Shown here: positions 15,982 to 35,926 of the stretch, piece after piece
Layout of the letters: each line of letters opens with the position of its first letter
Numbering within the stretch: the stretch's first letter is position 1
NCBI GenBank assembly: GCA_044892525.1
Contig: CM097887.1
Span: forward strand, 81,074,397-81,138,396
Source: Schmidtea polychroa
Lineage: Eukaryota
Reading direction: 5' to 3'
Length of the DNA stretch: 64,000 nt
Translations under genes and position numbers: made by a program
Notes under the pieces: generated by a model
Told to the model about the DNA's origin: nothing
The model's input: the letters and a program-made list of their open reading frames with translations, nothing else
Databases searched by the model: none

Positions 15982-16043
15982 TCATTTAAAATTATTTTAA
16001 TATATCATTGAAATATTTAATTCTCGGCTGAAAACACCTCACA
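15982..16043. repeat. 62-bp dispersed repeat, copy 1 (copy 2 at 35865-35926)
   Basis: 60/62 identical by eye; both copies stop at ...AAAACACCTCACA. Confidence 0.85.
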
Positions 16044-16447
16044 TAAGCAAACTTGAATTAATAGGGATAAGGAGAGAAAGAAATCTTTTATATAACCATA
16101 ATTTACTAACTTCTCATTTAAATTTTTTGTAATAATTAGCTTGCTATTATTAACTTGAATTATTTGACATTCACCTTCAAAAATCTCAAATACTCACATA
16201 CAAACCCATTTGTCATTTTATTTAATGATGTGAAATTTATTAAATACTATAGATTTATTATTTCTAATTTGTCTGGTAATTCTACCCATGAATCTATCGC
16301 TAATCGGTATAAGGTGGTTAGTAATCGATTAAATTGCAAAATCTTTGGTTTAGTTTGTTCATCAAGCAATTGGTGGGTTACTGGTGGTTGAATGATTAAG
16401 TGCTGTTACCAGCGTAACCCAAAATACAACATTAGAGTTTCCGCTTG

Positions 16448-16601
16448 GTACCCGTTGAGTAATCAACGTTGGTACTGTACCAAGGGTTGAGTACTCACAA
16501 AAAGTGAGTGCATCAAGGCACTATAATTGTCGAGTACTCCATGGGTTCACGGACTACCGATAGAAGGTGTGTGTCCGATTTCTCAGGTCCCTTATCAAAA
16601 T
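16448..16601. ncRNA. Conserved structured module, copy 1 (bulged stem-loop 16448-16475 plus SL-like segment 16556-16601)
   Basis: GTACC-CGTTGA-gtaa-TCAACG-TT-GGTAC; homologous to 25795-25823 and 61021-61049. Confidence 0.6.
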
Positions 16602-16670
16602 TGTTTTCCCAAAATCTCAACTCACTAATTCTCAATCACTCGATATTTGCGGACAATACACCTCATATAC

Positions 16671-18164
16671 TGCCCGACACTATTTTTAGCACAGTAAGAA
16701 ATTTCGTTACAAAATCATGAATAATGTAATAAATGAAATAAATTTTGTATGATTGTAATTAATATAGTAATACTTTTAATAATTATCACTACTTAGACAT
16801 ATATTATTTTTTGTTTAAATAATATTTGAATTCTTAGGTTTTTTAAAAATTAAAATACGACACAATTTTTAGCACACTTTAAAGATTTTTAAGTATTAAT
16901 AATTTTAACCTATTCTTTTATACTACTTTATATGATTTTAATGTTTATAATAATTTTAGAATTGATTATGAGATCTCCAGATTTAAAGAAAGTTGCTATA
17001 AAGATGAAACAGGAAGGTAACAGTTATGGTGCAATTGGCACCATTTTGGGCATGTCTAGATATGTTGTTAAGAATTTAGTCACCTACAAATATGTGTTAC
17101 ATAAACGCAAACGTGGAAACAGAAGAAAAATAAGTAAAGCAGACGCGTTATCCATCAAAAGAGAAACTGCACGGATAACGAGAGCACAGGAAAAAGTTAA
17201 TTCGCCCAAGATCAAGAGAAATTGTGGGCTAGCTGTATCAACAAGGACAGTACAAAGGTATATGCAGCTTGCTGGTATGAAATACGCAAAAAGTTATCAC
17301 GAAATCATCCTATCTAAGAAACACAAGGAAGAAAGAATGAAAGTGAATACAGAATGGATTTCGACCAATCACATTTGGGAGAATACTATATTCTCAGACA
17401 AAAAAAGGTTCACACTTAATGGACCAGATTGTTGGATGACATATATTCCGAAAACATCAAAATATGTGCGTAATATTCGGCAATGTCATGGAGGTGGAAT
17501 TATGGTCTGGCTGATGATCCTTCCTAACGGAATTCTATCTTTCCACATGATAACTGGCAAATTTAAGTCGACCGATTACATTACCCTGTTGAAGACCTTT
17601 GCTGTGCCAATAATGAAAGTTAACCTAAAGAGGAATTTTTACTTCCAGCAAGACAATTGCACAGTACACAAAGCACGGATTGTCCAAGATTATCTGAAAT
17701 CAAGTAATATATCAACGATTACATGGCCGTCACGAAGTCCAGACTTGAACATAGTTGAGGATGTCTGGAAGATGATTTCAGATATGGTTTATGACGGACC
17801 GCAGTTCTTAAACATAGCTGTTTTAGAAAAAAAAATTACGGATGTCATATCTCTTATCAACTGTACCAGGCGACATAAAATTTTGGATTTCTATGCATCA
17901 ATAAGATTGAGACTGTGTAAAGTTCTGAGTAATCACGGAAATTTGTATAATTGTTAAGTGTGCTAAAAATTGTGTCGTATTTTAATTTTTAAAAAACCTA
18001 AGAATTCAAATATTATTTAAACAAAAAATAATATATGTCTAAGTAGTGATAATTATTAAAAGTATTACTATATTAATTACAATCATACAAAATTTATTTC
18101 ATTTATTACATTATTCATGATTTTGTAACGAAATTTCTTACTGTGCTAAAAATAGTGTCGGGCA
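16671..18164 (+). mobile_element. Full-length Tc1 transposon with about 209-bp IR-DR TIRs
   Basis: 16671-16879 is the reverse complement of 17956-18164 with no mismatch seen. Each TIR carries outer and inner direct repeats CGACAC(T/A)ATTTTTAGCACA(G/C); TA-flanked. Confidence 0.95.
16932..17957 (+). CDS. Tc1 DD34E transposase (likely start ATG 16968)
   Basis: Uninterrupted ORF with N-terminal HTH, RG(N)RRK linker, IFSDKKRF, FQQDN, WPSRSPDLNIVEDVW; 34 residues between the second D and E. Confidence 0.95.
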   Translation: MILMFIIILELIMRSPDLKKVAIKMKQEGNSYGAIGTILGMSRYVVKNLVTYKYVLHKRKRGNRRKISKADALSIKRETARITRAQEKVNSPKIKRNCGLAVSTRTVQRYMQLAGMKYAKSYHEIILSKKHKEERMKVNTEWISTNHIWENTIFSDKKRFTLNGPDCWMTYIPKTSKYVRNIRQCHGGGIMVWLMILPNGILSFHMITGKFKSTDYITLLKTFAVPIMKVNLKRNFYFQQDNCTVHKARIVQDYLKSSNISTITWPSRSPDLNIVEDVWKMISDMVYDGPQFLNIAVLEKKITDVISLINCTRRHKILDFYASIRLRLCKVLSNHGNLYNC

Positions 18165-18259
18165 TACAACACTTGTTAACTAAATTGTTTTTACACCATA
18201 ACAATAAACAACCAAAAATTCAATGCGTATAGTCCAGATGACTGTTCGTATTGCTGGGA

Positions 18260-18691
18260 TTACGTGGGCGTCGCCCTTTCTTGTCGTTCATACTCGGCTA
18301 ATCTGGCCTTCTTTAGCTTTTCCCGGATGTTTCGTCCCAGCCGCTTCCTTTTGGGCTTATCTTTCGCGGCCGGAGGGTAAATTGCTGCCAACTCCACGGT
18401 CAACTGCCGGATTTGACTTATTGTGGCTCCGTGAACCGCTTGTTCATTGCGTTCGGTTTTTAACGCGCGGAGTTGGAGCTTCAAGGCCCAGATCTCCATC
18501 TGATCCTGTGCGGCTTGGGTCTGCAGTTGGAGGACCTGCGCCACCTTCTTTTTCATATCCTGGGGACTAAACCAGGTGCTTTCTAGTTCCCGGCACCGTC
18601 CCTTGAGTCTGTCCACTCGGACTCGGAGATCCTCGGCCTGTTTTTGTGCTTCTTCCCTGTCCTTCCGTAGGTTCTCCAATAGTTTGAACAC
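18260..18691 (-). CDS. Coiled-coil protein of the multi-ORF element, cluster A (ORF2)
   Basis: 143-codon GC-rich ORF with heptad pattern and basic C-terminal motif; homologous to the 26979-26178 frame (LESTWFSPQDMK vs LESTLFSPPLMK). Confidence 0.6.
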   Translation of the reverse strand: MFKLLENLRKDREEAQKQAEDLRVRVDRLKGRCRELESTWFSPQDMKKKVAQVLQLQTQAAQDQMEIWALKLQLRALKTERNEQAVHGATISQIRQLTVELAAIYPPAAKDKPKRKRLGRNIREKLKKARLAEYERQERATPT

Positions 18692-18928
18692 TAAAAGAAA
18701 TATTCTTAGATTATGTTATTACACCATGATATTCGCTTGATAAGATCGGTACTGGTTATAAAGACATTTTATCATTATTGAAGACCAACCCATTTTTACG
18801 ATAATTTATTAAAGAAGAAACTCATTCAAAGTAAAGTTCATCATCAAATCAAATCTTATTAATTCATTACAGAGGAGATTGGTTCAGAGTAAATTTCATG
18901 TCTATCGCGAGTTAGAATTGAGGACGAG

Positions 18929-19259
18929 TTAGGCCGGGTACTTGCGAGGCCTCCCCCTTTTTCGCGGGGTCGCCTCGGCCTCCCCCAGGTCCTCCAGAGT
19001 CTTTCCTTCTCGGATTGCCCGGATTTGCATGTCGAGTTTCTTCAGTCGCATCTGGGCCGCGTAAAAGGTCGTTTCCCGGCTCCTCCTTCACCCACGCCGG
19101 GGCATCTACTTCGAGGCCCTTCCGGATCACTCGATCTGTGCAGTCCAGGTCCCGTCCCTGACTCCACCGATGGATGTGGTACCAAATGTACCGGGTCCGG
19201 AGTCGGGTGATCGTCTGCCGATCGGCTTCTTCGATGCTGCTGCTGTCAGAGAAGATCAT
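18929..19259 (-). pseudogene. Small AT-hook protein, cluster A ORF1, with a 1-nt frameshift near 19075
   Basis: The +1 frame after ...WVKEEPG reads TTFYAAQMRLKKLDMQIRAIREGKTLEDLGEAEATPRKRGRPRKYPA*. Confidence 0.6.
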
Positions 19260-19784
19260 TTCTGCAAAGTAACAATCAGGTCACTTTATACAGATTATGT
19301 TACGAAGTTAAACACGGGATTTTGTTAATCCCTTTTCCCCCTTTTTAAAAATTCAACGTTAACGAAAAAGAAAATTCTTTATTTTCCAGCTAACACATAT
19401 AAGCCTAAGAACAATAGATTAAAATCACATTCATTATCAACTAGATTAAAAAGGAATTTCGTCGAAAATCCGTTTGTTTAAATTAATCATTTACATTCCA
19501 GAATTTTTTTACCACTAAGTGGTAATTTTAATTGCTATTTATAAATTTTAGTTTATACTTGAATAAAATGTAAAGTTTTTGGATCATCATTTTTAGGCCA
19601 CTAAATTCGGGCACGCTGGGGCGACAGGTGCTAGCAACGAACTAAGCTCTTCGTCTGCTTACCTTTCCTTCGGTTGTGCTCGTTATGAGTGGTTTGCTCT
19701 GCATACAAGTAATTTATTTAATTTGCTAATTTCTAAATTTCCAGGTGATCGATATCGGATTGGGATATCGATTTTTTGTAGTTA

Positions 19785-20230
19785 ACTGTAATAATAATAA
19801 TACCAATAATAATAACAATGAAATAACGATACTAATAATAATAATGATAATGATAATAATAATATTAATATTAATAATAGCAATGATAGTAATAATAATA
19901 AGAATAATAATAAATTTTAATAATGGTAATGATAATGGCAATAACAACAACACTAATAATAATAATAATAACAAGAATAATAATAAATTNNNNNNNNNNN
20001 NNNNNNNNNNNNNNNNNNNNNNNNNNNNNNNNNNNNNNNNNNNNNNNNNNNNNNNNNNNNNNNNNNNNNNNNNNNNNNNNNNNNNNNNNNNNNNNNNNNN
20101 NNNNNNNNNNNNNNNNNNNNNNNNNNNNNNNNNNNNNNNNNNNNNNNNNNNNNNNNNNNNNNNNNNNNNNNNNNAATGATAATGATAATGTTGATACTGC
20201 TAATAGTAATAACAAGGGAAATGATCAGGA
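19785..20230. repeat. Degenerate (AAT/GAT/AAC)n low-complexity tract around an assembly gap (N 19990-20174)
   Basis: Trinucleotide repeats on both sides of the gap. Confidence 0.9.
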
Positions 20231-22924
20231 TTAAGATAACTATAATTTTATAATCCCATGTTTTAGAATTATAAATTTATGTTTTATAATTTATACTTTG
20301 ATAATTTTCGATTTATAATTTTAAATTTTTCAATTTAGGGATTTACAATCTTGTAATTTATAATTATAATTTCATATTTTGAAATTTATATATTCGTATT
20401 TTATAAGTTATAATTGCTTAACTCATAATTTATAAGTTTATAATCTAAAATTTATACTTTTGTATTTTGTAATTCGCATTTTCATACTTTATAATTTGAA
20501 ATTTTTAGTCGACGGAATATACTTCTTACAACTTCCTTTCTATGATCAACATTGTTTTCCGCAGTACTTACAGATTTCCTGGTCCTATTTGTGAATTAAA
20601 ATTCAGAGTTCTAGCGCGCCTATCGCCTATCTGTAACCAATCCTCAGTTGATTTTTATACGAAAAATTGTTTACTACTATCTCTGATCAGACTTTCTCCA
20701 TTAACAATTTACATTTTCAGGATCGACGTGATTTGTACCTAGCTATCGTAATTATTTATAACTTATAGTTTTATAGTTAACAACAAGAATATTACAACTA
20801 AGAGCTTACACATTTACAAACATTTTAAAGTGGGAACTAGATTTAAAAATGTCTATCTTTACTCGGAATCAGCATATCAAGTTATACCTGTACGTATGCC
20901 GAGTATCTCTCTTATTTCTATTACCTTATCAAAGATCCTTACTACAAAATCTAGTTCGGCATATGTCTAAGTATAATTGAAATTACCATTATGGATCAAC
21001 TAGCTACATTAATGTGATTGTAGAATTGTGTAATTTTAGGTACGAGCTCTACTCAAATTAGAACCTTAGTGTAGAGTTATTGTTCAGGATTTTAAGTGTT
21101 GAGTTTAATTGTATATTACGCAATGAGTCGGGAAGAATATTGCTTCCATGGCCCCACTGTGACCACTTCCACAAACCTTAGTGTTGTGTGCTAAGTCAAC
21201 CATTTACGGCTGACCTTAAATAAATACGAAGAGTCAGACGGAGGGTTTCCTCGACCTAACTCCATGGCAGGACCATGAAGTAGTTCGACCTCCGGCTGAC
21301 CCGAACAAAAAGAGCCAAATAATAAGAGATTAATATAATAAAAATAATGCATGTTTGCATGTACTATGAGGATTTTAACAAATTGGATGCAGGACTGAAC
21401 AACGACGCAGTAATACCAGTACGCCGTTGAACATTCGTACATCAAAAAAAAAACATCAAATATGGAATTACTTTAATCTTAAATAAATCAAAACTACATG
21501 ATAATAAAAAATTCAATCATATATACTCACTATGTAGATTGGAAAAGTTTTTGTTCAAAATTTGGCATAAAATAATGATGATTCTGACTGAAACGTGTCA
21601 GTATATATACCTATTTTGTACACTTGTATGTATATATATTTATTTATGCATTAAAACAAACTCGAATTCTTTTTATTCCAGAATTTTCTATTTTGCGATT
21701 TTGATATTTTTAATGGCAATTTTTGTGCCATAATTTTTGTTTTTATTTTTAAATTTTTATTTTTTAATTATTTTTCGTTAATTTGACGTCCATGATGGAT
21801 TTGGAACGGTTCCAGAACATTCTATTTTACTTTTAATTTAATTTTTATTCTAACTGGTGTTTTATGAATTTCTTTTTAAGATTTATTATTTTTAATACTA
21901 ATTTATTTATTTTCTCTAACTTTTATTGTTCTAGCTGGCTTTTGTGATGGTCATCGCCATTTTAATGGAATGTTCTGGGTTTTTCTGGAATTTTTTTCGG
22001 TTTTTATCGTCTTTTAAGTTATTCGAGTCTGTTTTATGTTTATCTGTGTTTATTTAGTTATTTTCGAGTTCTATTTTGCATAACCTCTTGCTTTTGGTAT
22101 AATTTTATTTAATTTCTGTGTTTAGGTTTTTGTTGTTTTTTCCTTTAATTACTATTGTTTATTTGGTGTAGTTTTTAATATTTAACTATACTTTTTGCTT
22201 TTTGCATGCTGTGTACATTTCAGTCACAATTAGAAATTTGGGTCTAGAAGTCAGTTCTAGCCCAACACAATATTCGAGTTATCGGTTCCATAAATCGTAC
22301 CTTTCCACCAAGGTTTGCTGGTAGCTCGTTCGTGCATTTTTCTTATTTATTAATTTTCACTATTACTCCTTTGCATTTATAACTGTATAACGCTTCTCAA
22401 AAAATTCTCGAAAAAACGCCGCTTTCTGATATTAATATAGGTGCTACTAAATTTGGATTCGTAACTGCCATCGTCATCCGATTGATTGCCTAAACACAAA
22501 AGAATTTTTGTCCATATTCATACTCCAAATATTCACTTCATAAAACACTCTTTTAAATTGTAAATTATTCAATCACTTACTCATTTGAACTTGTATTAAT
22601 GATGGTGTAGAAATAATTTAACCTTGGAAATAATTTATATGTTAATTTTATTTACATTATTAAAACTAAATTAATGTCACTGAGAATCTTATCAATTGCC
22701 ATTTGGTGAAAGGTGGTTGTGTATATGAATTAGCATTTTTTTATTTAAATTATTTTATCATAAATTAATTTAAATGAAATTTTAATCAATTAAAATTAAA
22801 TATTCAAGATTTATACAAATCAATTTATTGTACGATTGTAGAATTTCTCTGAATGGATTACGACGAAATCCAGAACTTCTGAGAGCTAGTCCAAGCTGTT
22901 CCAATAGGATATATATGGTAACAT

Positions 22925-24724
22925 ATGGGATTCATTAGTGGCAGTGTAAGAATTTGTTTATTTAGCAATAGAATGCGACGAATAAAATTGAAAAAGATTT
23001 TACTTTTTTTCATTGTGCTCCTTGGAATATTTCTGATACAAAATATTTTATCGGATTGGAAAAATTTATCATCTGAAACAGATGAAGACCCCAGTGATTC
23101 TCAAGTTAAAATAGATTGGGCGAACTATGAGACAATCGATGAAGAGACAGTCAGAGAAGGCGCAGGAGAACAAGGAACAGGAGTGCATTTGACTGCGGAA
23201 GAAAATGAAAAGGCCAAACAACTCATGGAGATCAATGGGTTTAATGCTCTTGTGTCAGATAAAATATCAGTCCACCGTTCTGTTAAGGATCTACGAATAA
23301 ATAAATGCAAATGGTTGAAATATGACAATTTCCTCCCTCAGGCATCAATCATAATTCCATTTCACAATGAACATTGGTCGACTCTCTTGCGAACTGTCCA
23401 TTCGTTATTGTATAGATCTCCAGACAAATTAGTGAAAGAGATCATCCTTGTCGATGACAACAGCACGAAAGAGTTTCTTGGTGAAAAACTTGATCAATAT
23501 GTTTCAGAGCATTTTACAAAGGTTCGCATTTTGCGTACTGGTAAAAGAGAAGGTTTAATCAGAGCCAGATTAATTGGAGCAAATTATGCAAACGGCACTG
23601 TGCTAATATTTATCGATTCTCACTGCGAAGTGGGAATAAATTGGTTGCCCCCCTTGCTCCAGCCAATTAGAGAACATTACAAGACAGTTTCTTGCCCATT
23701 TATTGATGTAATTAGTTATAATGATTTCTCTTTGCGGCCTCAAGACGAAGGAGGCAGAGGAGCGTTTGATTGGAATTTTGATTACAAACGACTTCCTCGC
23801 TTACATACAGACAATGCTCACCCAGAAAAGCCATTTGATAGTCCAATTATGGCTGGAGGACTTTTTGCCATTAGTAAATTATGGTTCAATGAACTTGGAG
23901 GTTATGATGATGGGCTCGATGTTTGGGGAGGCGAGCAATATGAGTTATCCTTCAAAGTATGGATGTGTGGTGGTAAAATGGTCGATGTGCCATGCTCTAG
24001 AATCGGGCATGTGTATCGAAAGTTTAACCCTTTTGGAGTCAGGAGTTTAGGGAATTATATAGCTAGAAATCACAAACGAGTAGCAGAAGTGTGGATGGAT
24101 GATTGGAAGCAATATATTTATCAGAAACATCATAGATTATATTCATCATTGGATACAGGGGATTTAACTAAGCAGAAACAATTGAGAAAGACATTGAATT
24201 GCACCTCATTTGATTGGTTTATGAAACATATTGCCTATGATCTCTTACAGAAATATCCGATTCAAAAGACGCCAGTTGATTTATCACAAGGGAAGATCAA
24301 ATCAGAAATTAATCCTCATTTATGTTTTGATTTCAAATTCGGAAATTCGGGAGATCCATTTCAAATTTCCAATTGCTCAAATTCGGCAAGCACTGGTGGT
24401 GGTGATGAACAAAATTTGGCTTTTACATGGGAGATGGAAATCAAACCTCGTCAAAGAGATATCTGCCTGGATTACCCAAGAAGAGGTGAGACATTAATGC
24501 TTTTCAGTTGCCATGGATTTGGCGGAAATCAGCAATGGATATATAATCAGAGTTCTCATCAGATTGTACACGTTGTCAGTAAGAAATGCATTGACTACAG
24601 CTATAACCCAAGAAACTTTGATATATCCATTCGTAAATGCTCCCGGGAACAGTCTCAGAAATGGATCCTAGAAAATATGAACGCGGAGATTGCGAGTTAT
24701 CTGTGGAAAGAGCAAAATCTGTAA
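22925..24724 (+). CDS. GALNT10: Polypeptide N-acetylgalactosaminyltransferase, GALNT10/gly-10-like, 599 aa, single exon
   Basis: N-terminal TM; GT-A domain (SIIIPFHNE, IILVDDNS, REGLIRARL, DSH, MAGGLFAI, WGGEQYELSFKVWMCGG, PCSRIGHVYR); C-terminal ricin-B lectin with QxW repeats. Subfamily assignment by recalled motif similarity. Confidence 0.95.
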   Translation: MGFISGSVRICLFSNRMRRIKLKKILLFFIVLLGIFLIQNILSDWKNLSSETDEDPSDSQVKIDWANYETIDEETVREGAGEQGTGVHLTAEENEKAKQLMEINGFNALVSDKISVHRSVKDLRINKCKWLKYDNFLPQASIIIPFHNEHWSTLLRTVHSLLYRSPDKLVKEIILVDDNSTKEFLGEKLDQYVSEHFTKVRILRTGKREGLIRARLIGANYANGTVLIFIDSHCEVGINWLPPLLQPIREHYKTVSCPFIDVISYNDFSLRPQDEGGRGAFDWNFDYKRLPRLHTDNAHPEKPFDSPIMAGGLFAISKLWFNELGGYDDGLDVWGGEQYELSFKVWMCGGKMVDVPCSRIGHVYRKFNPFGVRSLGNYIARNHKRVAEVWMDDWKQYIYQKHHRLYSSLDTGDLTKQKQLRKTLNCTSFDWFMKHIAYDLLQKYPIQKTPVDLSQGKIKSEINPHLCFDFKFGNSGDPFQISNCSNSASTGGGDEQNLAFTWEMEIKPRQRDICLDYPRRGETLMLFSCHGFGGNQQWIYNQSSHQIVHVVSKKCIDYSYNPRNFDISIRKCSREQSQKWILENMNAEIASYLWKEQNL

Positions 24725-25794
24725 ATAGATGGGGATTTGATTGCCTTAAAAATATTTTATAAAAATAAATTGTTTCTATTTTATATAGTTTGGACCCATA
24801 ATAAAAACACAATAGGACATATAAAGATTCTGTGTTCACACCAATGCGCAATTAATAGAAGTCTTTATGACAATAAATTAGAGCTTCAACAATATAAATA
24901 AAGCTAAGCAATACAAATGTGTGCATTTGTGTGTCATTAACAAAATTGATATTAAATAGGAGTCTGCCAAAAATAAACATTTACGTGTCGAAAATACAAA
25001 ATGAGGTATATAATAAAATATAATTGATTGTGGGAAAAGACATTAATTAAATGTATCTTCACATAATGACATAATTTACTGATGGATTAATTATAAATTA
25101 ATGTCTAAAATAAAGTATAATGTCGGCTCAATAGCGATTTGGACTTAAATAGGACCAATTTACAGTACACACGTACGTGTCAACGGTGAGCACTATTAGC
25201 TCCAATTGTCTTCGTGAGGGAAGATTTGAGAAATGATGCAAAACAGAGAAAAATTTGACAATTTATTATTATCTTTTTTATTGCATCATGTATTTTTACT
25301 GTAATTATTCTTATAACGTAATTCTTATTTGGATTCGACTCAATATAGACAAAATATAATAAAAATCTCGATCCGACGCGTCGTGTTCAGCAATCAAAGA
25401 AATAAAACTCAAAACCCCAAAAATTATTTATTTCTTAATTGTTCAAATTAGTTATATTTTGTGGGTCGCAGGCATTTTACATTCTACCCTTTCCTGTCGT
25501 TTCCGACACAACTGTGTTTCTCAAACCGTGTGTCGCAAGACTTTTTCGCCAAAAAAGTTAGTAATAAAATAAATTTACAAAAACTTGATCAAGCTTTTTA
25601 CTATGAAAAAGTCGCTTCTGTGGATCAAAATTACAAAAAATTTCCCAAAGAAAGGAGTACACAAAACATTTAATTAGTATTGTTGGGCGCTTAGGGGTGT
25701 GTCGCGATGGTGGTTACTAGGGGTGACGATGGTTGTTCCATAGGGGACTCCTTCCTAGACGCCCATTATGATTTGTCACTATTCTCCCTCATGT

Positions 25795-25973
25795 GTACCC
25801 ATGATAACGAATCATGTTGGTACTGTACATATGGGTTGAGCCCTTGCGTTAGGACTACTCCTCCCGATATTCGCCATTCGGGTTCCTGAATGCCGTTAGA
25901 AGGACTTACATTGGTCTTATCAAGTACCTTTCGTCTCTACTATACATCTGGTTCAAGTGAGGTCGTTTCTAAT
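25795..25973. ncRNA. Conserved structured module, copy 2 (stem-loop 25795-25823; SL-like 25892-25921; HDV-like fold 25863-25973 on minus)
   Basis: GTACC-CATGAT-aacga-ATCATG-TT-GGTAC; about 85 bp alignable by eye with 61005-61085. Confidence 0.6.
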
Positions 25974-26177
25974 TTCCCTTTGTTTCGGAGCGACTGTCAA
26001 ATCAAGAAATGCTTTATGGTTATGAATCACGTAACAAAACACAATAACACTAGACATTCTACATGAAATTATATTAGATTCATTACAAATTAAACATTCA
26101 GCAATTAAGAACACTAATAAATCAATTCACACCATCACTGTTAATAAATACACTCCGATTCTGACACGAGCTGCGGT

Positions 26178-26979
26178 CTAATTCCCAAGCGTATATTTTT
26201 CAATTTCATACGAGCTCTCTTTCGTCGGTAGCATTTTGCCCTCGTCTATCATGGCGGCGATATCTGTCTCCAGGTATGGATCGTGAATGAGTACGGATGT
26301 GGTAGTCGGGATCATCCTATTTAAAGCAGTAGTTGATGCGACTAGCTTAGGCTGTGGTTGATTTTTCCTGGCCTCAGTGACGGCGAATAGAGACGCTTCC
26401 AATGCGGCGATCTCGTCTCGACATTTCTTTAATCGTTCCGCTCTAGTTAAGCGCTTTCACTTTCGGGATTTGATTGAACTGGAATGATATTCGGATTCAC
26501 TGGGGCGGCTAGTGGTATCGTAGTATCCGTGCGAGTAGGCTGCACTCGACTAGTTCCCGTGAAAATGATGTCGGATGTTATGACAGGAGATGTCTCTGAG
26601 CAATGACTGTGGCATCGTTAGGTGGAATAGATAATCATCTCATCTGTCCGAGGGTGAATTGGGAACACATTCAGCTTATCGATAAGCGGAAATTTGCTGA
26701 TACGGTGTTTTAATTCTGCCTCAGAATAAATTCGATGAAGGGCCTCAGACTAGGCCTTGATGATGAGGCAATAGGCAAGCTCTCGCGGCAGTGCTCGAGT
26801 CGTAAAATCTTCTTATTGGCTTACTTCATAAGTGGCGGGGAGAACAACGTGCTTTCTAGCGTGTTGATACGCTTCTTCAGAACCTCGATATAGTCGTTTA
26901 ATTGACGCAGATTTGCGTTTTTGTCGGCACACGAAAAGCAGGGTTTCGGGCCGCGTGATGGAAGGTTCGGTTCCGACAT
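26178..26979 (-). pseudogene. Decayed coiled-coil ORF of the multi-ORF element, cluster B
   Basis: MSEPNLPSRGPKPCFSCADKNANLRQLNDYIEVLKKRINTLESTLFSPPLMK*ANKKILRLE... then frameshifts to KRLTRAERLKKCRDEIAALEASL...; homologous to 18691-18260. Confidence 0.6.
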
Positions 26980-27404
26980 AAGCTAAAAATTCATAAAAAA
27001 CGTCATGGTGTGTTATCAAACTGCTTTGACCAATGAACAATCGAGGCTTTCTCAGTCGTGACACTACTCCCCGTTCGCATACATTCGATCAGCTATTCCC
27101 CGTAAATTCTACATTTTATTACTTCAAACCGACGGGACCTTTACTTGTCGTATCTATCCAAACCAATCATAACATTCTACAACATCCGGAGCGAGATTTG
27201 ATCACGGACTGCATGTGTCTACTTTACCTTTCATCCTACGGATGATTCCCCAAAATTGGTAACCTTCTTAGAGCGGGGTCTAACTATGTTTGACCATGCG
27301 GAATGGCATGGAATAAATAAAACCAAGAAAACTAATTTTAACGCAACCATAAGTTTTCCCATCTACAAGTTAGGTTCTACAAGATTACTCATTGTTAGAC
27401 CAAA

Positions 27405-27912
27405 ATAAATCAATTTTACTGGAGGGAAAAACTTGCATGGGCTGGTGATCGCATTCTCACCCTTTTGTTTGACTTAAACATAGAAGTTTTACCGCACTTC
27501 ACCCATGAAACGATATTTTTATAATTCGACTTATCATCTAATTTATTTACCATTCACTAAGTTTAACATCAACTACTATACATTTCAACTGGATTTAAGA
27601 TTAATTACGCTGTGACATTAATTATGTATGGAATAAACTAGACTTAAGGTGTATATAAAGGTGTACATAAATCAATTTTACTGGAGGGAAAAACTTGCAT
27701 GGGCTGGTGATCGCATTCTCACCCTTTTGTTTGACTTAAACATAGAAGTTTTACCGCACTTCACCTATGAAACGATATTTTTATAATTCGACTTATCATC
27801 TAATTTATTTACCATTCACTAAGTTTAACATCAACTACTATACATTTCAACTGGATTTAAGATTAATTACGCTGTGACATTAATTATGTATGGAATAAAC
27901 TAGACTTAAGGT
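27405..27912. repeat. Near-perfect 246-bp tandem direct duplication (27405-27650 and 27667-27912)
   Basis: Period 262 bp; one mismatch seen (CACCCATG/CACCTATG); 16-bp spacer. Confidence 0.92.
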
Positions 27913-28866
27913 AATTTCAAGATCAATTAGATGATGACAGCGATAAACATTGTGACTAGACTTGGAAATTAAGCAACGGCGGCACTAATTATTGTTTATA
28001 TTCAACGCTGATACACCAAACACCACTGAGATACATTCTCTATAGTGGTGGTTGGCGTGTAAAACAATTTCTCTCACCAATTTACTGTGAATCATCTTCA
28101 TCAATTTACATTCATTTACTGAATTACTTACAATAATGAATTTTTTTTGGAAATTTATTTTAGCCATTTTAGAAATGGCTTTCAGGTAAGATATTTAATT
28201 TTAAGTAAAGTTTAAATCTTGAATTTTGATCGATATGCGATCATTATTCAAGTTCTTAAATTTTACTTTTAGTCAACATTATAATTATAAATTATTTTTA
28301 ATTAATTTTTAGGCATTTTTGATATTTTATGACAAGTATTTTGGAATATTTTCGAAAAAAATGTGAGTTAGATATGTTTTTAATTATAATTAAATAAATG
28401 AATTACCAAAAATATTTACTTTTCTAAAACATTTTGGGAAAAATCACCGAATAATAAAAATAAAATAATTTTTGTAATTTTTTTTTCTGAGCTCAATATG
28501 AGGAGCTTCTTTCAGGAAAGCAAATATGGATTGAAAAGACATTGAACAAAATTCATCTGCTCTTGAAATTTCATTAAAAATATATTTTTAAAAATTTTCA
28601 GCGATCTTTTTTTATCCAAAAATTGTCTAAAATAGAATTATTATAGAAATGTATCTCAGCGGTGCATTTCGATGAATCAAAAGTTTGTATGTGTTTTTTA
28701 GTGTGTGTTGTGTTTGTGTGCAGTTTATAATTTTTCTTCCACTTTTCAGATTTCTATAATATAGGATGTATCTGACTGCACTCTAAATGAGAACATCAAC
28801 GTGAAATCAGAGTAAGTATGTATGTTTCTATAATGTAAGATTATTGATTTTTTTGTTATATTATAG

Positions 28867-29654
28867 GAAATGCATCTGAATGGCGTTTGGTGTATTCAAT
28901 CTCTACAAATTGTTTACAATATCTGACGATTATGAAGTGGCAGTTCTCTAAAATTGTTCACCGGTCGATGTTCAACAGTGCATCCTGTTTACTCTCATTC
29001 GTGACGATGAGTGACGGCGACTATTTCTCTCGGCCAATTTTGGATGTGACAAAGCCTACGAAAATTTCCAAGAATAAACCGGATGTTGTGTCAATTCCCT
29101 CAACGGTGGTGATAATCGGGAATGATCGTCAAAAAATGGAAATCTTATTGTTTATGCTACGTTTTCTGATTCTACATGATATCCTGGGTAGACTGTTAAT
29201 ACTTGCATCGGCTAACCGCGGAAAATTGATGGATTTTAATCGAATACATCGACTTATCGGCAAGTGTTGCAAATCGTTCTAGTCAACATCCTCTCAGAAA
29301 ATACGAGTCTGGACCAATTTCTCGACGATATCAAGTGTTACCGTTGGATTTATTGCTTCTTTGCAAAGATGTTCGCATGTAGTGAGTTGCTTATCAAACC
29401 TACCCAACGAAAGTAGTTGCCTGATGGAACGGATCTGGCATATACATTCATCAATCTATGCACATTACTGATCTAAAGAACCGATGCTCCCTAATTATCA
29501 TTTCCAAATACAAACAAATTTTAAACTTCCCACTTACAATCGCACCTCCGGCGTGCCTATATGCAAAGACAATCTGATTACCACCGGCACAAGTTCCAGC
29601 GACATCCAAATGTATTCCCAAACGGGTTTCGCCACACATATTAATGATAAATAA
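28867..29654 (+). CDS. Coding-like frame with two in-frame stops (29280, 29469); weak resemblance to FNIP/Lst4 proteins
   Basis: TTATAG acceptor at 28866; segments of 137, 62 and 60 codons in one frame; AATAAA signals after TAA 29654; STVVIIGNDRQKMEILLFMLRFLI and SSSDIQMYSQTGFATH recall FNIP motifs. Confidence 0.4.
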
Positions 29655-29739
29655 ATTAAAAATAAATTAAAAATAAATTCATGATTATAAAAATTTCGAT
29701 ACGCAATTTTCGGAAACTAATTTTATTCTAAAGTGCCTC

Positions 29740-30200
29740 ATGCCTTGTTGGTAGCATATTCGCCTTTTCTCGATCAATCCTGCCTGAGCGGCTTGTCTAT
29801 CCGATATCTAATAGTATCAACACATCTTCCCCTTATGACACAGATTCCACAGAACATTGCTTAGCCTGACTCGCTACGAAATATCTTTGACTTCCCCATT
29901 TACCGGGGTTTTCCTCTCTCTCACCTAAACCTCACTTCCTCCTTCTCTCCCAGGACTAACTCCTCATGTTTCTGACCATCATCTGTTGCTATGCTTCATC
30001 AGATCGTTCTCGATAAAATTGATTCTAATTCCTACCAGCAATTCTCGTTCCGATATTTCCTGTCTCAGGAAAGTGATCAATCGTTTCTCAACGGAGTCAC
30101 TTGCTCATCGATTCCTAACATTCTCCAGCCATTGCTTCAACATCTCAGATGCATTCATCATTCATAGATGTTGCCCAGAACACATTCAAATCATTCTTTT
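29740..30200 (-). pseudogene. Ty3/Gypsy gag-protease remnant
   Basis: Stop-ridden E/R-rich frame followed by GEDVLILLDIG (cf. retropepsin LLDTG). Confidence 0.45.
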
Positions 30201-31371
30201 CTGAAATGGCATTACTAAATCGCAAAATCATCGACAATTAATTTAATTTGCTAAGTTTAAATAAATGATGTAAAGAGAAAAAAGAGAGAACATTTGTTAA
30301 TATTTTAACCTATTTAAATGTTACATAGTAAAATAATTGCATATACATAAAATAAAAATAAATCAAAAATTTACATTCTTGCTAATTCTTATTTAACGAG
30401 TCCAAAATTCTCGAGTCGAGTACTATGCTGTGATTTCCAATTGACAATAAGGTTCGGAATTTATATTTAATGTTGAAATTGTCCCTAATGATTGACCGGA
30501 ATTAGAATTTTAACGATTGACCTGAATAAAATTTTTAAGAATTGAGGGAATCAGTCAAGTCGCTTTCTTATATACTAATTTTCGTCCAATCAGGATCCAG
30601 CTATTGTGTAAAGTTGTGTTTTTTCTCTTTTTTATTCTTTTTAACCCTTTTCTTAAGGTTGTTTATTTCTTTTATTTTGTAATTTATTAAATATTTTAAT
30701 TTTTCTTATTTTCCTCTTTCTTTTGTTGGATCCTGTTAGTTATTCGGTTTGTGATTTTGTATTCTATTCTTTTTTGTTTTTCTTAATTATCGTTTTATGT
30801 TGATTTTTTTCTGATATTTTGCTTTGCCTATCAGTCATGATTGTGTGTTCTGTTTGTTTAAGAGTTATTTGATGTCTATTTCGTTTTGGTGATTTTATTT
30901 ATTATTTTATTTTATTTATTATTTCTCCCTTTCCTTATTCTTCATTTTCCTTAATACTTGACTGATTAGCCTCAATTTGATGCTATACACAAGGTTTTAT
31001 TTAGTTATTTTACAGAAAAATTCAGGTTTTCCGGTTTTTAGCCCAACAAATCACTCCGGGGCCCGTTAAAATTGCGTCCCGCAATTTACATGCAAAACAA
31101 TATTCCTATACCTCCCACCATTTTTATAACTAAAACATAAAAAAATTTTTATTATAAGATAACGTGCAAATACAAGACAAGCAGGGGTCACTTAAGGTGA
31201 ACAGTTTTTTTATACAACCAATTCAAGTTCGTTCAGTTTGAATGTTAACCGCGTCAAACAAAATTGTCTAAAATATTGTTATGCTGGATTTTTGTTGGAT
31301 TTCGCAATCGTCTCTGGAGCTTCTGTTTGGGCGGTTTGGCACTATTGTTGAAGTGCTGAGTTGGATTGTGG

Positions 31372-33136
31372 CTAGGGTGTCCTTGTTTGTCCAAGTGCCT
31401 GAGGTTGGTTGGATTTCGGAGATTTACTGAATCGAACTGTTTTCTCTATTTTTTCAAATTTCTGAGAACATCTTATCTTCGATATTGGAGTGGCTTGGTG
31501 ATTTTTTTGCCACATTCGGTATGACTTATATGATTTCCAGGTGGCTAATATGAAGATGACGAGGGTTTCAATGATTATAATGTAGAGTAGGATACGGCTG
31601 TCTTTCGTTTCTTTTCGATGTATATCCTCTTTTTGGGATTGTTGAGTGACTTGTTGTTGAAGGAGGGATTCTAGTTGCTCGATTCTCTGGGTTTGGAAAA
31701 TGAGCTGCGCTTGGATTATCTGACAGACGGGTTAGGAAAAGTTTATTTTAACGGTTTATAACATTACAGGCCAATTAAGGCATAAGTAGAGAACTTCTTC
31801 AACCCTTCATTATAAAAAGATTTTACATAGCTCTCATAGGGCGTCGAGTCTAAGACTCGAGCGTCAAACGTTGTTTAACAATTTTCCATAGGCAGTTGAT
31901 GGAGGCCCATGTGTGTCGGAGTGTGCCAGATATGATCATGGGGTAGGGAGCCAAAAGCATCAGTGATATCGAGCCAGATGATGTGGAGTTCCGTTTTATT
32001 GCGGACAGAGAAGTCTTTGATGAGGTGTAGAGTTAGGTTATGTTCAGCGCTGCCATCCGGGGTGCCAATGGCTTTTTGGTTAGTGGTAAGTAGATTGGCT
32101 TGCCTGATCCAGGATAGGATGCGATGATTAAGGACAGAGGAAAAGATACGGTATGCAGTGTTCATGGCTCGTTTCATGTTTCCCTTGTTTAAGTATCAGT
32201 TTGGTCCGAAAGGTCTTCCAGCTTGCAGGGGGGGGGCATATCGAGGTGGAAAGTATGCTGTTACAGATAGCAAGAAGGGGTTCAATATCGAGGCATATCT
32301 TTTTCCAGTCAGGTAAGGTAATCTTGTCGATGCCTGGGGCAGTGTTGTCCGGTGAGGCGATAGTGGAGGAAGGTCATCAATGTCAATACGGATAGAAGAT
32401 GTATTTTCCGGAAATGAAGGAAACGATAAATCAGTGAGGTCGGATATGGGTGTATAGCCCCGAAGAGAAGAAGTATATTAGCCTTTGTGGGCCTATGTAG
32501 AGATACGGCCGCCCCAATGATTTTCCCAATCTCGTCTTTGGGTTTCGTGCGGAATCTGGTACGTTTAATGCATAGGAGCTCATTTTCCGATTTCAATTTT
32601 TTGTGCGCGGCGTCTGCTGGTTTTATTGTCTTGTATCTGTCTGGGTTGACGTTGCCATTCATTCGTTCAATCTCGTTAAGGGCTGATTGGACGTATATTA
32701 GGTTATGGGAAAGTTGTTCAGTGAGGTTTATGAGGAATATGTGGTATTTTCTGATATTACAAATAGGTATCCTATTATAGATGAAAGTTGAAATGATCTG
32801 CCTGAAAGTTGAGCATGTGGCCTAAGTCAGGAGTGGTAATGGGAGTGTGTGAGTTAAGGCATTTCAGAATGTGATATATGTATTGTGCAGACTCAAGTGG
32901 TGTCAAGCATCGTGGGTATTCAAGATTCGTTAGTGACAGGGTGACTTGGCTGACGATATTTTCCAGCACTGTTTCTGGATATTGTTGTAATAGCTTCTCA
33001 CGTCTACGATGGTGGTTAGTTGATTTAGATTGTGTAGATGATTCTCTGGGATCTTCGAGATTTTATGGGATGGTTGCTTCATAGGTAAACTATTTGCGAT
33101 GTGCTTCATTCCTATGAGGATTGCTCCGTACCACAT
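31372..33136 (-). pseudogene. Type I membrane (env-like) glycoprotein gene of cluster C, frameshifted and interrupted by an RT fragment
   Basis: Signal-like N-terminus MWYGAILIGMKHIANS; NLT sequon; Q-rich coiled coil IEQLESLLQQQ; TM ILLYIIIIETLVIFILATW (31593-31537); basic cytoplasmic tail to TAG 31372. Confidence 0.5.
31900..32600 (-). mobile_element. Internal fragment of an RLE-type non-LTR retrotransposon RT (R2/NeSL/Utopia group)
   Basis: DNTAPGIDKI, SWKTFRTKLILKQG, YRIFSSVLNHRIL, NQKAIGTPDGSAEHNLTL, LHIIWLDITDAFGSLPH (RT domains 0-3); no YADD, RLE or 3' end. Confidence 0.85.
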
Positions 33137-33239
33137 ACTAGTATACATATATTTTATTTACAATTTATTTACACCGTCTTTATTTATCTTTAGTTATCGG
33201 AGGGGTTTCCCTTATTAGCTTTCTCGGACAACCACATCA

Positions 33240-35786
33240 ATTTGGTTTTCCGCTTTTATTATTGGTTCCTTAGTTCTGGCATTATCCTCAATTGCTTATC
33301 CTTTTCATTCATTTGTTGGTTTAGTGTTTCTATCTTTTTCTTAAATGTTTTTATTTCTTACTTGGCTTTGATTAAACCTTTTTCGTTCATTTGTTGTAGG
33401 AAGTCATTTTCTCGTCCTCTCTTTCGTCCTCTTCTTTGTCGTCTATTTCTTGATATTTTTCACTCATTTTTCTCATTACTTCACATTCTCTTTTTTTTCT
33501 GGTGTAATTGATCTTGTAATTTTTTCAGGTTTTTCTGATATTTCCTTGCTTCCGTTTTCCAGTAATCGTTAATTACTTCTTCTGCGTTTGTGCTGGCTCT
33601 TTCTTGCCAAAGTTCTTCTGCGATTTTTTCCCAGTTTCTTCCTTGTTTTCTTTGTTCATGGAGCCACTCATTTTCCTCTTCTACTTCCTTCACTTCCTCC
33701 AATAATTTGTATTCTCTCTTTAATACTTTCACCATTCTTCGGTTATCTCTCCATCCCTTTATTAGTCTTGCATTCTCTTGTCTTTCCTCTTGTAATTTCT
33801 TTTTGATTATTTTCTTTCTTTCTACTATTTCCACTTCAATTTCTCTTTTCTCTAGCTCTATCGTTGGTGATTTTATTAATCTCTCGGTTTCTGAGTTCAT
33901 TTTCTATAATATTTACAATGGTTATTAATGCGCTATAGAGCGAATTATACATATACAATAATTTTCGGATTACATTTCTTGATTTATACAGAGGGTTACA
34001 GTCCCTTTACTACTATTATCGTACTATTAATTTTTTTTTGGGATATAGTTCCCAAATTTTATAGATTTTCTTATATTTTTACGTTTTTATCGATTCTACT
34101 TTATACGAATGTTTCCTCTTGACCCACATATCCTTCGTCACTTTCCACTGACGATTCTAAATGTATGGCAATTGGATCGTATGGTACATAGTACCTTGGG
34201 AGTTGTGCTCTTAGTTCATGCACTTCATCTCTTAGGGCTATGTAGATATTTAACTCTTTGTCGATCAGATATTTGAGGTATCTGGCTTCCTCATCTCTTA
34301 CCTCTATCTGTCTTTCCAACTCCTTTACTTTCTCATTCCCATTTCATTTTCCAGCTCTTTTTCCAAAGTTTTTATATTTTCGTCATACATCTTTCGTTCA
34401 TCGTTCATCTTTTTGTTCTTACCGGCCACCAATATGTTTCTTTGCTCTATTACCCCTCTGTGCCCGTTATTGTCTCTTTCGAGTTCCCTGACTTTATTGT
34501 TGAGCTCCGCGATTTTTCCTGCTTGCTGGGTTATTACTTCTTCCTTCAGTCTATTTTCCTGATCTTTCAATGCCAATTTAACTGGCAAATATCGCTCAAA
34601 TTCAATGGCTTTAGTATGCCATGTCTGACTACGTGCAGCGATCTTTCACAATCTCTTTAACTCTTCTCTTTGATTTAAAGTTTCCTCCCATTTTTCTTGC
34701 TCGTCAGCTAATCCAAATTTCTGCGGTAATTCTCGCATCTCTTCCTGTGTTTCTTAGCTTTCTCTTTTCCATCTTTTGGCCTGTCTCAGGATTTCGTTTG
34801 TTTTCTTTTCTTTTTTGTTTCTTTGTTTCTTCCATTTTTTATTATCGTCTTTTAACCTTTTCCTCGATTCGTTCACTAGCTGTTTTAAATAGTGGCTATG
34901 TGCCTATTGTCTTGTAGACTCTAATGCTGACCATTGGGCTGCTCTTTTATAGGTTTCGACCTCGGTTCTTAAATTCTGGTTCAGCCTTTGGAATTGTTTG
35001 CTCTCCCATTTTCGGGTTTCTTCTATTTCTACCCTCACCCTATTCATATACTGGTGGGTCACCTTTTCCCACTGTCTTTTAATATTTTCTGATATTGTGT
35101 GTTGGATTGTCGGGTTTCTGTTTTCTGTGACTCTTTCTTGGGTCATTCTACAAAATTTATACGATATTAATTTAGTTGGGTTTGTTTTGTTTATTTAATT
35201 GCATCGTCATTGTTTTCTGAATTTTCCGCGTTATTTTAATTTTTTGTGGCATCGGTTTTTCTACATTATTATATATAACTTTGTTCGGGTATATACACTA
35301 ATATATACAATTTTTTTATATACAATTTAATCCTCCCACTTTTATTCTGTTTGTCCAATCCCTTCCTTCTTGAATGACACCTTTATGTACACTGTGTCTT
35401 CTTTCACCTTCCTTTCTAGTTTCCACTGGGTAATGAAGTTGGTGCCCCTGTTGCTGATCCTTCTTGTTCTACGGGTCTTTTGTAACATACGTGGTTTCCT
35501 GTCGCTCTGAAACATTCCTCGTGGATGGTTTTGTCATTCAACATGCTAATGTCGACTTTGGCCCAGTAGGAAAAAAATTGAAAAGTGAGTTTCTTTTCCC
35601 GTTCCATTTGCGTCTGGGTAAGCCTTTAACCTCATCTTGTAACCGTTCTTCGATGAATAAAATGCTGGACTGAGTACTGTTATGTCTTTCCCGTCTTTGG
35701 CCCGTTGTATTTTTTCTTATATATATAAGGTTCGCAACTCGTAGATGTGACCAAGGAATCTGACGCATTTTTGAAAGACATTGCAT
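33240..35786 (-). pseudogene. Array of decayed co-oriented ORFs, mostly E/K/R coiled-coil (cluster C): starts near 35780, 35146 and 33900
   Basis: ORFs 35146-34904, 34588-34325, 34319-34101 and 33900-33481 chain through stops and frameshifts; strongly purine-rich coding strand. Confidence 0.6.
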
Positions 35787-35864: not shown

Positions 35865-35926
35865 TCATTTAAAATTATTTTAATAAATCATTGAAATATT
35901 TAATTCTCAGCTGAAAACACCTCACA
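35865..35926. repeat. 62-bp dispersed repeat, copy 2
   Basis: See 15982-16043. Confidence 0.85.

Follow-up and report, generated by a model that had tools for sequence, protein, structure and literature searches.

Candidate splice acceptors kept ahead of the accessory genes of two Burro-type giant LTR retroelements in Schmidtea polychroa

Two giant elements and their accessory frames

The window analysed here is a 64,000-nt stretch of the Schmidtea polychroa genome (assembly GCA_044892525.1, contig CM097887.1, positions 81,074,397 to 81,138,396), and six reading frames on its minus strand are accessory genes of two Burro-type giant Ty3/gypsy long terminal repeat (LTR) retroelements. Searches of the same genome, in which the best 40 candidates were scored of 1608, 644 and 842, resolved the region into three repeat sets and then into two giant LTR element families, A and BC. 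Both copies in the window are dead remnants, one a solo LTR and the other a broken 3' half. Cluster A, with frames A1 and A2, is the solo LTR of family A, and frames B and C1 to C3 belong to the decayed 3' end of a BC element; the accessory open reading frames (ORFs) are broken here by stops, frameshifts and an inserted reverse-transcriptase (RT) fragment. The remnants and their coding parts are as follows; a slash in a motif marks a putative splice boundary.

16371 to 22267, minus strand: solo LTR of Burro-type family A, with TG...CA ends and a 4-bp ATTG target duplication, read directly.
18260 to 18690, minus strand: A2, a coding exon behind YAG/TG, with a coiled coil and a WFSP motif shared with the B ORF.
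18914 to 19259, minus strand: A1, an ORF of 121 aa in intact copies with a C-terminal RGRPRK motif, frameshifted here by a deletion.
25681 to 31048, minus strand: 3' LTR of the Burro-type BC element, delimited by its ends and an upstream polypurine-region match to L094.
26229 to 26990, minus strand: B, a candidate acceptor and LTR-borne ORF with CxxC and a coiled coil, carrying stops and frameshifts and matched by tblastn to the intact ORF.
31387 to 33145, minus strand: C3, a candidate acceptor and ORF with a hydrophobic N-terminus, 208 aa when intact, split here by the RT fragment.
33191 to 33910, minus strand: C2, a candidate acceptor and coiled-coil ORF, 233 aa when intact, broken here.
34104 to 35155, minus strand: C1, a candidate acceptor and coiled-coil ORF, 345 aa when intact, with three premature stops and a frameshift here.
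35345 to 35716, minus strand: remnant of a TRAF/MATH accessory ORF (tblastn E 1e-21 to an intact 462-aa RING-TRAF-MATH ORF).

The insertion in C3 (about 31734 to 32958) was placed from the alignment with L125 and matches RVT_1 at E 2e-5. LTR copies of family A are 94-97% identical across the genome, and this LTR also bounds a 31.9-kb element carrying gag-env-pol. The BC 3' LTR holds later insertions and a 262-nt duplication, and its relatives are 86-88% identical; an intact BC relative is 30.3 kb long with 4.0-kb LTRs that are 99.6% identical to each other. Intact elements have ORFs inside the LTR, a RING ORF after the primer-binding site, a gag-env-pol-ankyrin polyprotein and five or six 3' ORFs. 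Pfam searches of L092, L093, L107 and L133 found a CCHC gag and then protease, RT, RNase H and integrase in gypsy order within a very long polyprotein, which in L133 includes a 2970-aa open stretch. An env-like fusion domain (PF24664) stands before the protease in L133 (E 5e-68) and in the gag frame of L107 (E 5e-41). The same searches found ankyrin repeats and free-standing RING, RING-TRAF-MATH and BIR-RING ORFs, the last in family A only, and the likeness of family A to Burro1 lies in its BIR-RING ORF only. A Penelope/Terminon or NeSL origin of the cassettes was ruled out by the LTR pairs and gypsy domains.

The accessory ORFs are under purifying selection, with ratios of nonsynonymous to synonymous substitution rates (dN/dS) of 0.04-0.42 in nine comparisons; three further ones were saturated. 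The values are 0.04-0.05 for C1, 0.06-0.24 for C2, 0.11 for A2, 0.13-0.18 between relatives for A1 and 0.42 for C3. We take the RGRPRK motif of A1 to be AT-hook-like. A1 has no Pfam, Atlas or convincing HMMER relative, and a search among 1.84 billion representative proteins returned two weak repeat-like hits only. No relatives of A1 were found among longer proteins, nor of a 532-aa coiled coil, and Atlas and metagenome contigs yielded nothing.

Acceptors, donors and spacers

An earlier note on this DNA, made from the letters of the window, had placed a splice acceptor directly before six of these frames and a donor in the shared context GAAAG/GTAA upstream of clusters A and B. All eight motifs are present on the minus strand where the note put them. 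The acceptors read TTTGCAG/AA ATG at 19259 (A1), TTTTTAG/CTT ATG at 26979 (B), TTGTAG/A ATG at 35146 (C1), TATTATAG/AAA ATG at 33900 (C2), ATACTAG/T ATG at 33136 (C3) and TTTTAG/TG at 18691/18690 (A2), and the two GAAAG/GTAA motifs, at 19662 and 27227, are the sole occurrences of GAAAGGTAA in the window. A bare AG within 3 nt before an ATG is common (19% of window ATGs, 30-38% inside A-rich elements), so the weight rests on a strict test and on conservation. The strict test asks for YAG at most 3 nt before the ATG and no AG in the 12 nt preceding. All five ATG starts in the window pass it, compared with 6.4% of 1083 minus-strand ATGs and 5.9% of 320 ATGs in AT-rich context (post hoc p ~1e-6), and the comparison with random ATGs that the note had called for thus comes out as an enrichment.

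The same pattern was found in intact 30-32-kb relatives, from which one start was taken for each of 16 accessory ORFs. An AG lies within 3 nt of the start in all 16, and the strict test is passed by 10 starts when the distance is set at 3 nt, by 12 at 6 nt and by 13 at 12 nt. Among all ATGs of the window and of six element stretches, the corresponding pass rates are 4-7%, 6-11% and 12-20% (p ~2e-8). Small subsets of AT-rich ATGs inside elements, true starts included, pass at rates of 0-16% at 3 nt. Across diverged copies the acceptor sites are kept while their flanks diverge, CAG and TAG are exchanged and the spacing from AG to ATG varies. For A1, YAG stands 1-2 nt before the ATG in 25/25 starts (CAG 9, TAG 16), and a branch motif resembling YTRAY is present; in one young A copy a deletion has removed the acceptor. 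The B acceptor is a YAG 0-3 nt before the start in 22 of the 22 rows that keep the start (the alignment has 25 rows, the start is missing in three, and seven further loci gave no hit). This variable offset within B implies that the upstream partner is non-coding and that the AG is not a stop codon. Corresponding counts are AG in 27/28 distinct contexts for A2, YAG within 1-7 nt in 27/27 copies for C1, TAG in 30/30 copies for C2 and YAG in 20/21 copies for C3. Comparison of the copies supports the view that the acceptors are under selection.

The LTR of family A carries further signals around A1 and A2.

18805 to 18810, minus strand: AATAAA between A1 and A2, followed by U/GU-rich sequence, a candidate poly(A) signal in the same column in 14/17 aligned LTRs.
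18940 to 18945, minus strand: candidate GC-type donor C/GCAAGT near the end of A1, predicted to be phase 1 in intact copies, with a weak exon side.
19262 to 19283, minus strand: A1 candidate acceptor with a branch-point-like CTGAT ~20 nt upstream.
19598 to 19693, minus strand: conserved hairpin of ~95 nt containing the family A donor, with covariation in 10 sequences.
19657 to 19662, minus strand: candidate major splice donor AAG/GTAAGC, donor-compatible in 11 homologous LTR blocks.

The donor proposed at 19662 looks functional. Its block occurs in 11 of 25 A1-bearing LTR stretches and reads GTAAGC, GTAAGT, GCAAGC, GTAAAT or GTGAGT, and across the genome the upstream motif was matched 412 times, with GT or GC as the next two bases in 408 cases. 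Many of these copies are young, so this count mainly shows that GC is the sole change that spread; several elements carry GC at the donor in both LTRs. The donor score is 7.4, against 3.2 for the site at 27227. In the surrounding hairpin 95.8% of 240 cells are paired and 5/24 pairs show compensatory change among the 10 sequences, counts of a kind that kinship inflates, and the folding z is -2.2 for the window copy and -3.7 for L178. GC at the donor breaks a hairpin pair, so the structure is not the reason for the conservation of the donor. We rejected the possibility that this hairpin is an element-encoded spliced leader (SL) RNA, as it has no obvious Sm site and no known family match.

The earlier note had read the GTG at 18691 as the start of its ORF2, which is our A2. 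The three codons after YAG/TG vary synonymously and the codon that follows is ATG in only 5 of 28 contexts, so the GTG is not a start codon. A2 is thus a phase-1 internal coding exon, and such an exon requires a partner in cis. Towards the end of A1, where the candidate GC-type donor lies, the Arg-Lys codons CGC/CGT AAG are fixed in 14/16 distinct motifs, in contrast to 48 neighbouring Arg codons that contain no CGC and a neighbouring Lys that splits 8:8. The kept AATAAA between A1 and A2 suggests that a short product and a joined one are made as alternatives, and the leader donor could be an alternative source of the base that A2 is missing. One stretch, L186, carries a B-type LTR ORF (L186:1232) ~2.3 kb upstream of an A1 ORF (L186:3539), each with an acceptor, in a nested or recombinant LTR.

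The BC LTR has three sites of comparable interest.

27222 to 27227, minus strand: AAG/GTAAAG, the second donor of the earlier note, score 3.2, probably not functional.
29540 to 29640, minus strand: second conserved long hairpin (7 sequences) with an invariant GT at its end, position 29545 (GAG/GTGCGA).
30565 to 30592, minus strand: conserved CCAAT-plus-TATA-like block, a candidate LTR promoter.

The resemblance of the 27227 site to a donor is probably fortuitous. The strong context AAG/GTAA is present in 5/25 aligned B-type LTRs, no structure surrounds it (z +0.4) and it lies downstream of C1 to C3, so it cannot serve them in this copy. The GT at 29545, found in 8/8 homologous rows, is a better donor candidate for family BC; of the 38 pairs predicted for its hairpin, 4 show compensatory change in the 7 sequences. 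Taken by itself, the decayed copy in the window folds no more stably than shuffled sequence (z -0.5), and in a young BC relative the strongest LTR hairpin (z -4.3) surrounds TAG/GTGAGT at the same distance from the ORF. As a donor candidate, the GT at 29545 is weaker than the conserved family A site. Seven B-type LTRs retain the CCAAT/TATA-like block, among them L134, which can hardly be aligned elsewhere. We rejected an antisense gene in the B LTR, since a sense-strand hairpin accounts better for the conserved block, and a 9.3-kb repeat of B-type LTRs was set aside as a segmental duplication. Rfam gave no match on four element stretches, and the hairpins belong to no family known there. A below-threshold match to mir-753 (E 8e-6) at 28208-28262 lies in an AT-rich inserted repeat and is probably a palindromic transposon end.

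The polyprotein has an acceptor too, 488-579 nt upstream of gag. Between it and the gag ATG there are zero ATGs in 7/7 copies from two families (2-4 are expected from dinucleotides), and an equally long stretch before the acceptor holds 12-19. In the BC gag leader a strong donor and an acceptor lie merely 27 nt apart (L092:5268-5294), a possible micro-intron.

The spacers between the 3' ORFs were examined in two intact cassettes (L131 and L173), which together have 11. They are 55-221 nt long with 18-28% GC, and UGUAHAUA occurs in them 17 times against 1.5 expected, that is 12 per kb compared with 0-1.4 in LTR and leader sequence. The first copy begins 15-19 nt past the stop codon in 9/11 spacers, often with a second at 28-30 nt, and the window retains such a pair.

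33155 to 33173, minus strand: tandem TGTAAATA motifs, 17 and 28 nt past the C2 stop; at 35324 the motif recurs behind the TRAF stop.

UGUAHAUA corresponds to the PUF element and includes the CFIm UGUA signal. Its fixed distance past the stop points to a possible function linked with the termination of translation or with the stability of the mRNA. UGUAAAUAAA is present in 4/11 spacers against 0.15 expected; AAUAAA alone, at 12 against 11.7 expected, is not enriched. GTRAG was found in 1/11 spacers against 3.6 expected, and because of this scarcity the spacers are not ordinary introns between neighbouring ORFs; they look like the start of a 3' untranslated region (UTR) followed by the end of an intron or outron. 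The C1-C2 spacer (33920-34060, minus strand; L131:3930-4050) is one of the two without the post-stop motif, and three short GC-containing inverted repeats were seen in it in the window and in a diverged relative.

Other features of the region stand apart from the accessory genes.

16668 to 18164, plus strand: Tc1/mariner transposon inside the A LTR, with perfect 209-nt terminal inverted repeats and a DDE_3 transposase at 16932-17957 (open, 341 aa).
22925 to 24724, plus strand: intact single-exon gene for a 599-aa GalNAc-transferase-like glycosyltransferase with a ricin-type lectin domain, between both element remnants, possibly a retrocopy.
57086 to 58191, plus strand: decayed gypsy-type RT and integrase fragment, positionally unrelated to the accessory genes.

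A 62-nt direct repeat of 97% identity (15982-16043 and 35865-35926) flanks the whole 20-kb region.

Expression of the accessory frames

We judge it probable, if well short of certain, that in intact elements the accessory frames are made as separate mRNAs by alternative cis-splicing of a short non-coding 5'-LTR leader to a chosen acceptor. Transcription would start in the 5' LTR upstream of the hairpin, and the hairpin would tune donor use so that part of the RNA stays unspliced for packaging. The polyprotein would be made from spliced RNA through the acceptor upstream of gag and the AUG-free stretch, A1 and A2 may be joined through the weak GC donor in competition with the intronic poly(A) signal, and UGUAHAUA past each stop may act in the 3' UTR, in 3'-end formation or in protecting long 3' UTRs from decay. 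Cis-splicing is favoured because of the conserved LTR donors, the phase-constrained A2 exon and the frame of the start codons. The SLs of flatworms have AUG as their last three bases, and in the cestode data of PMC3510090 this AUG was used by 143 of 187 SL clusters, a proportion that may differ in planarians. Here 7/16 starts would be in frame with a terminal SL AUG, no more than by chance and fewer than in the cestode set (p 0.005).

This reading keeps part of what the earlier note had inferred. It had proposed that a polycistronic pre-mRNA is resolved into single-ORF mRNAs, either by alternative cis-splicing of a common leader or by SL trans-splicing. Splicing into single-ORF mRNAs is still the best reading, with acceptors under selection and the donor at 19662, but a single transcript or a leader common to clusters A and B falls, as the two clusters lie in the LTRs of two different element families.

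Several observations weigh against cis-splicing from the LTR. Of the 16 representative starts, three do not pass the strict test even when 12 nt are allowed, two of them because they have AAG and not YAG, and the conservation counts come from related copies and are not independent events. The other 14 of the 25 A1-bearing stretches are without the homologous donor block; within 1.5 kb some have another strong donor 110-640 nt upstream and some have none above threshold, and the donor matrix behind all scores is generic and was not fitted to this genome. Other strong donors, with scores up to 9.5, occur in leader and polyprotein, so the LTR donor need not partner the 3' acceptors 20-25 kb away. 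No run recorded as RNA was found to contain the sequence. Four contig sets on the 3' cassette of a relative, from runs that are possibly DNA, showed no GT..AG joint and no loose acceptor end among the rows listed; one contig set that stops near a genomic A-run after C1 is not evidence. Three junction-type pattern searches of the genome for spliced retrocopies found none (0/7 hits related in one, no hit in another, two point mutants in the third). A 17.5-kb family A derivative in L194 (minus strand, ~6.0 kb into the stretch) keeps both LTRs but lacks most of the polyprotein, and its deletion junction is a short microhomology, not GT-AG, with an in-frame fusion to the tail of the IAP (inhibitor of apoptosis) ORF region.

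The rival that survives best treats the 3' cassette as an operon, in which the RNA is cut and polyadenylated at each spacer and the host SL is placed on the next ORF, the LTR genes being cis-spliced. We think this unlikely. The spacers, at 55-221 nt, are near the ~100-nt mode of flatworm operons as given in PMC8629364, they hold the 3'-end-like signals described above with almost no donors, and SL trans-splicing in planarians is described in PMC10899757. Set against these points, there is no enrichment of AAUAAA by itself, the A-rich spacers show no clear U-rich element, and 9/16 starts would be out of frame with the SL AUG. Efficient internal cleavage would also destroy the genomic RNA, and several strong cis donors precede the cassette as long as the RNA is uncut, although internal cleavage could remove them. 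In its full form, to which we give the same low credence, the Burro 3' cassette would be a true operon with each gene (TRAF, IAP, coiled-coil, secreted-type) cut at its own 3' end and SL-capped, the LTR-encoded DNA-binding protein and the donor hairpin balancing full-length RNA. If true, an LTR retroelement would be using host trans-splicing to express a multi-gene cargo.

The 3' acceptors might also be cis-spliced to a donor in the post-LTR leader or the polyprotein, possibly on RNA from an internal promoter such as foamy viruses have. Between the LTR donor and the cassette lie 20-25 kb, the BC leader contains CAG/GTGAGT with a score of 9.5, and GTGAGA/GTAAGT sites lie late in both polyproteins. 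Family A offers no such leader site, since past its primer-binding site no donor exceeds 5.4, and the LTR donor with its hairpin is what we found conserved across subfamilies; we regard this arrangement as doubtful. Still less credible, to the point of being very improbable, is a long RNA read by reinitiation with no splicing at all, with the AG serving as start context for translation or as a stop-restart signal, or being left over from captured host sequence: the position of UGUAHAUA 15-19 nt past the stop could mean a termination-coupled event and the contig rows listed hold no spliced RNA, but TAG and CAG exchange freely, the AG is preceded by a pyrimidine or AT tract and by a YTRAY that resembles a branch point, A2 is coding sequence mostly without an ATG after its acceptor, and the gag acceptor is the edge of the AUG-free stretch.

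Comparison with known systems

Burro/GYPSM1 elements of planarians, as presented in PMC6431247 and, for the BIR-RING inhibitor of apoptosis B-IAP, through PMC13465017, share with the elements described here a length of ~30-32 kb, multi-kb LTRs, a CCHC gag and an env-like fusion domain before the protease. According to PMC6431247 they also share the order protease, RT, RNase H, integrase, ankyrin repeats, MATH/TRAF and BIR-RING cargo, and accessory ORFs. The passages of PMC6431247 and PMC13465017 on these elements give domains and ORFs, not acceptors, donors, LTR hairpins or mode of expression. In comparison with those passages, TRAF and IAP are here free-standing 3' ORFs, each with its own putative acceptor, and one or two further ORFs lie inside the LTR. 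A 2026 study, as cited in PMC13465017, reports that the Burro1 BIR-RING inhibitor of apoptosis supports stem cells and regeneration. In the literature searched there is no account of spliced Burro accessory mRNAs or of how these ORFs are expressed; the primary Burro papers (Grohme 2018; Lee 2026), outside that search, may show them. The elements and their cargo are already known; what is added here is strong comparative evidence, drawn from sequence, that a giant gypsy-type element has an expression programme with many acceptors. Planarian genomes contain Burro elements in abundance, and the literature consulted does not say how genes 20-25 kb into such an element get translated. The conserved acceptors, the LTR donor in its hairpin and the post-stop motif supply exact junction coordinates for planarian RNA data.

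In their predicted layout the elements recall complex retroviruses and notably foamy viruses, which by the account in PMC3694450 have a major donor in the LTR, upstream of the poly(A) signal and in structured RNA, with accessory ORFs located both in the LTR and at the 3' end. They differ from the elements here, which are of Ty3/gypsy type with seven to nine non-overlapping accessory starts and UTR-like spacers. SL-resolved operons of flatworms and nematodes, in the portrayal of PMC8629364, have short intergenic spacers and an acceptor just before each start, as here; unlike them, these elements do have upstream cis donors, and the frame of the SL AUG is not favoured. One feature of complex-retrovirus-type expression, a selected acceptor ahead of each accessory ORF, is present in these elements. 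The adenovirus major late unit joins one non-coding leader to many alternative acceptors, each directly before an ORF, and errantiviruses, which are gypsy-type, make a subgenomic spliced RNA to a single env ORF. In contrast to errantiviruses, env is here within the polyprotein, and the putative splice targets are host-derived regulators and coiled-coil proteins. If this is confirmed, a Ty3/gypsy-type element would equal complex retroviruses in how elaborately it expresses its genes or, on the bolder reading, would make use of host trans-splicing.

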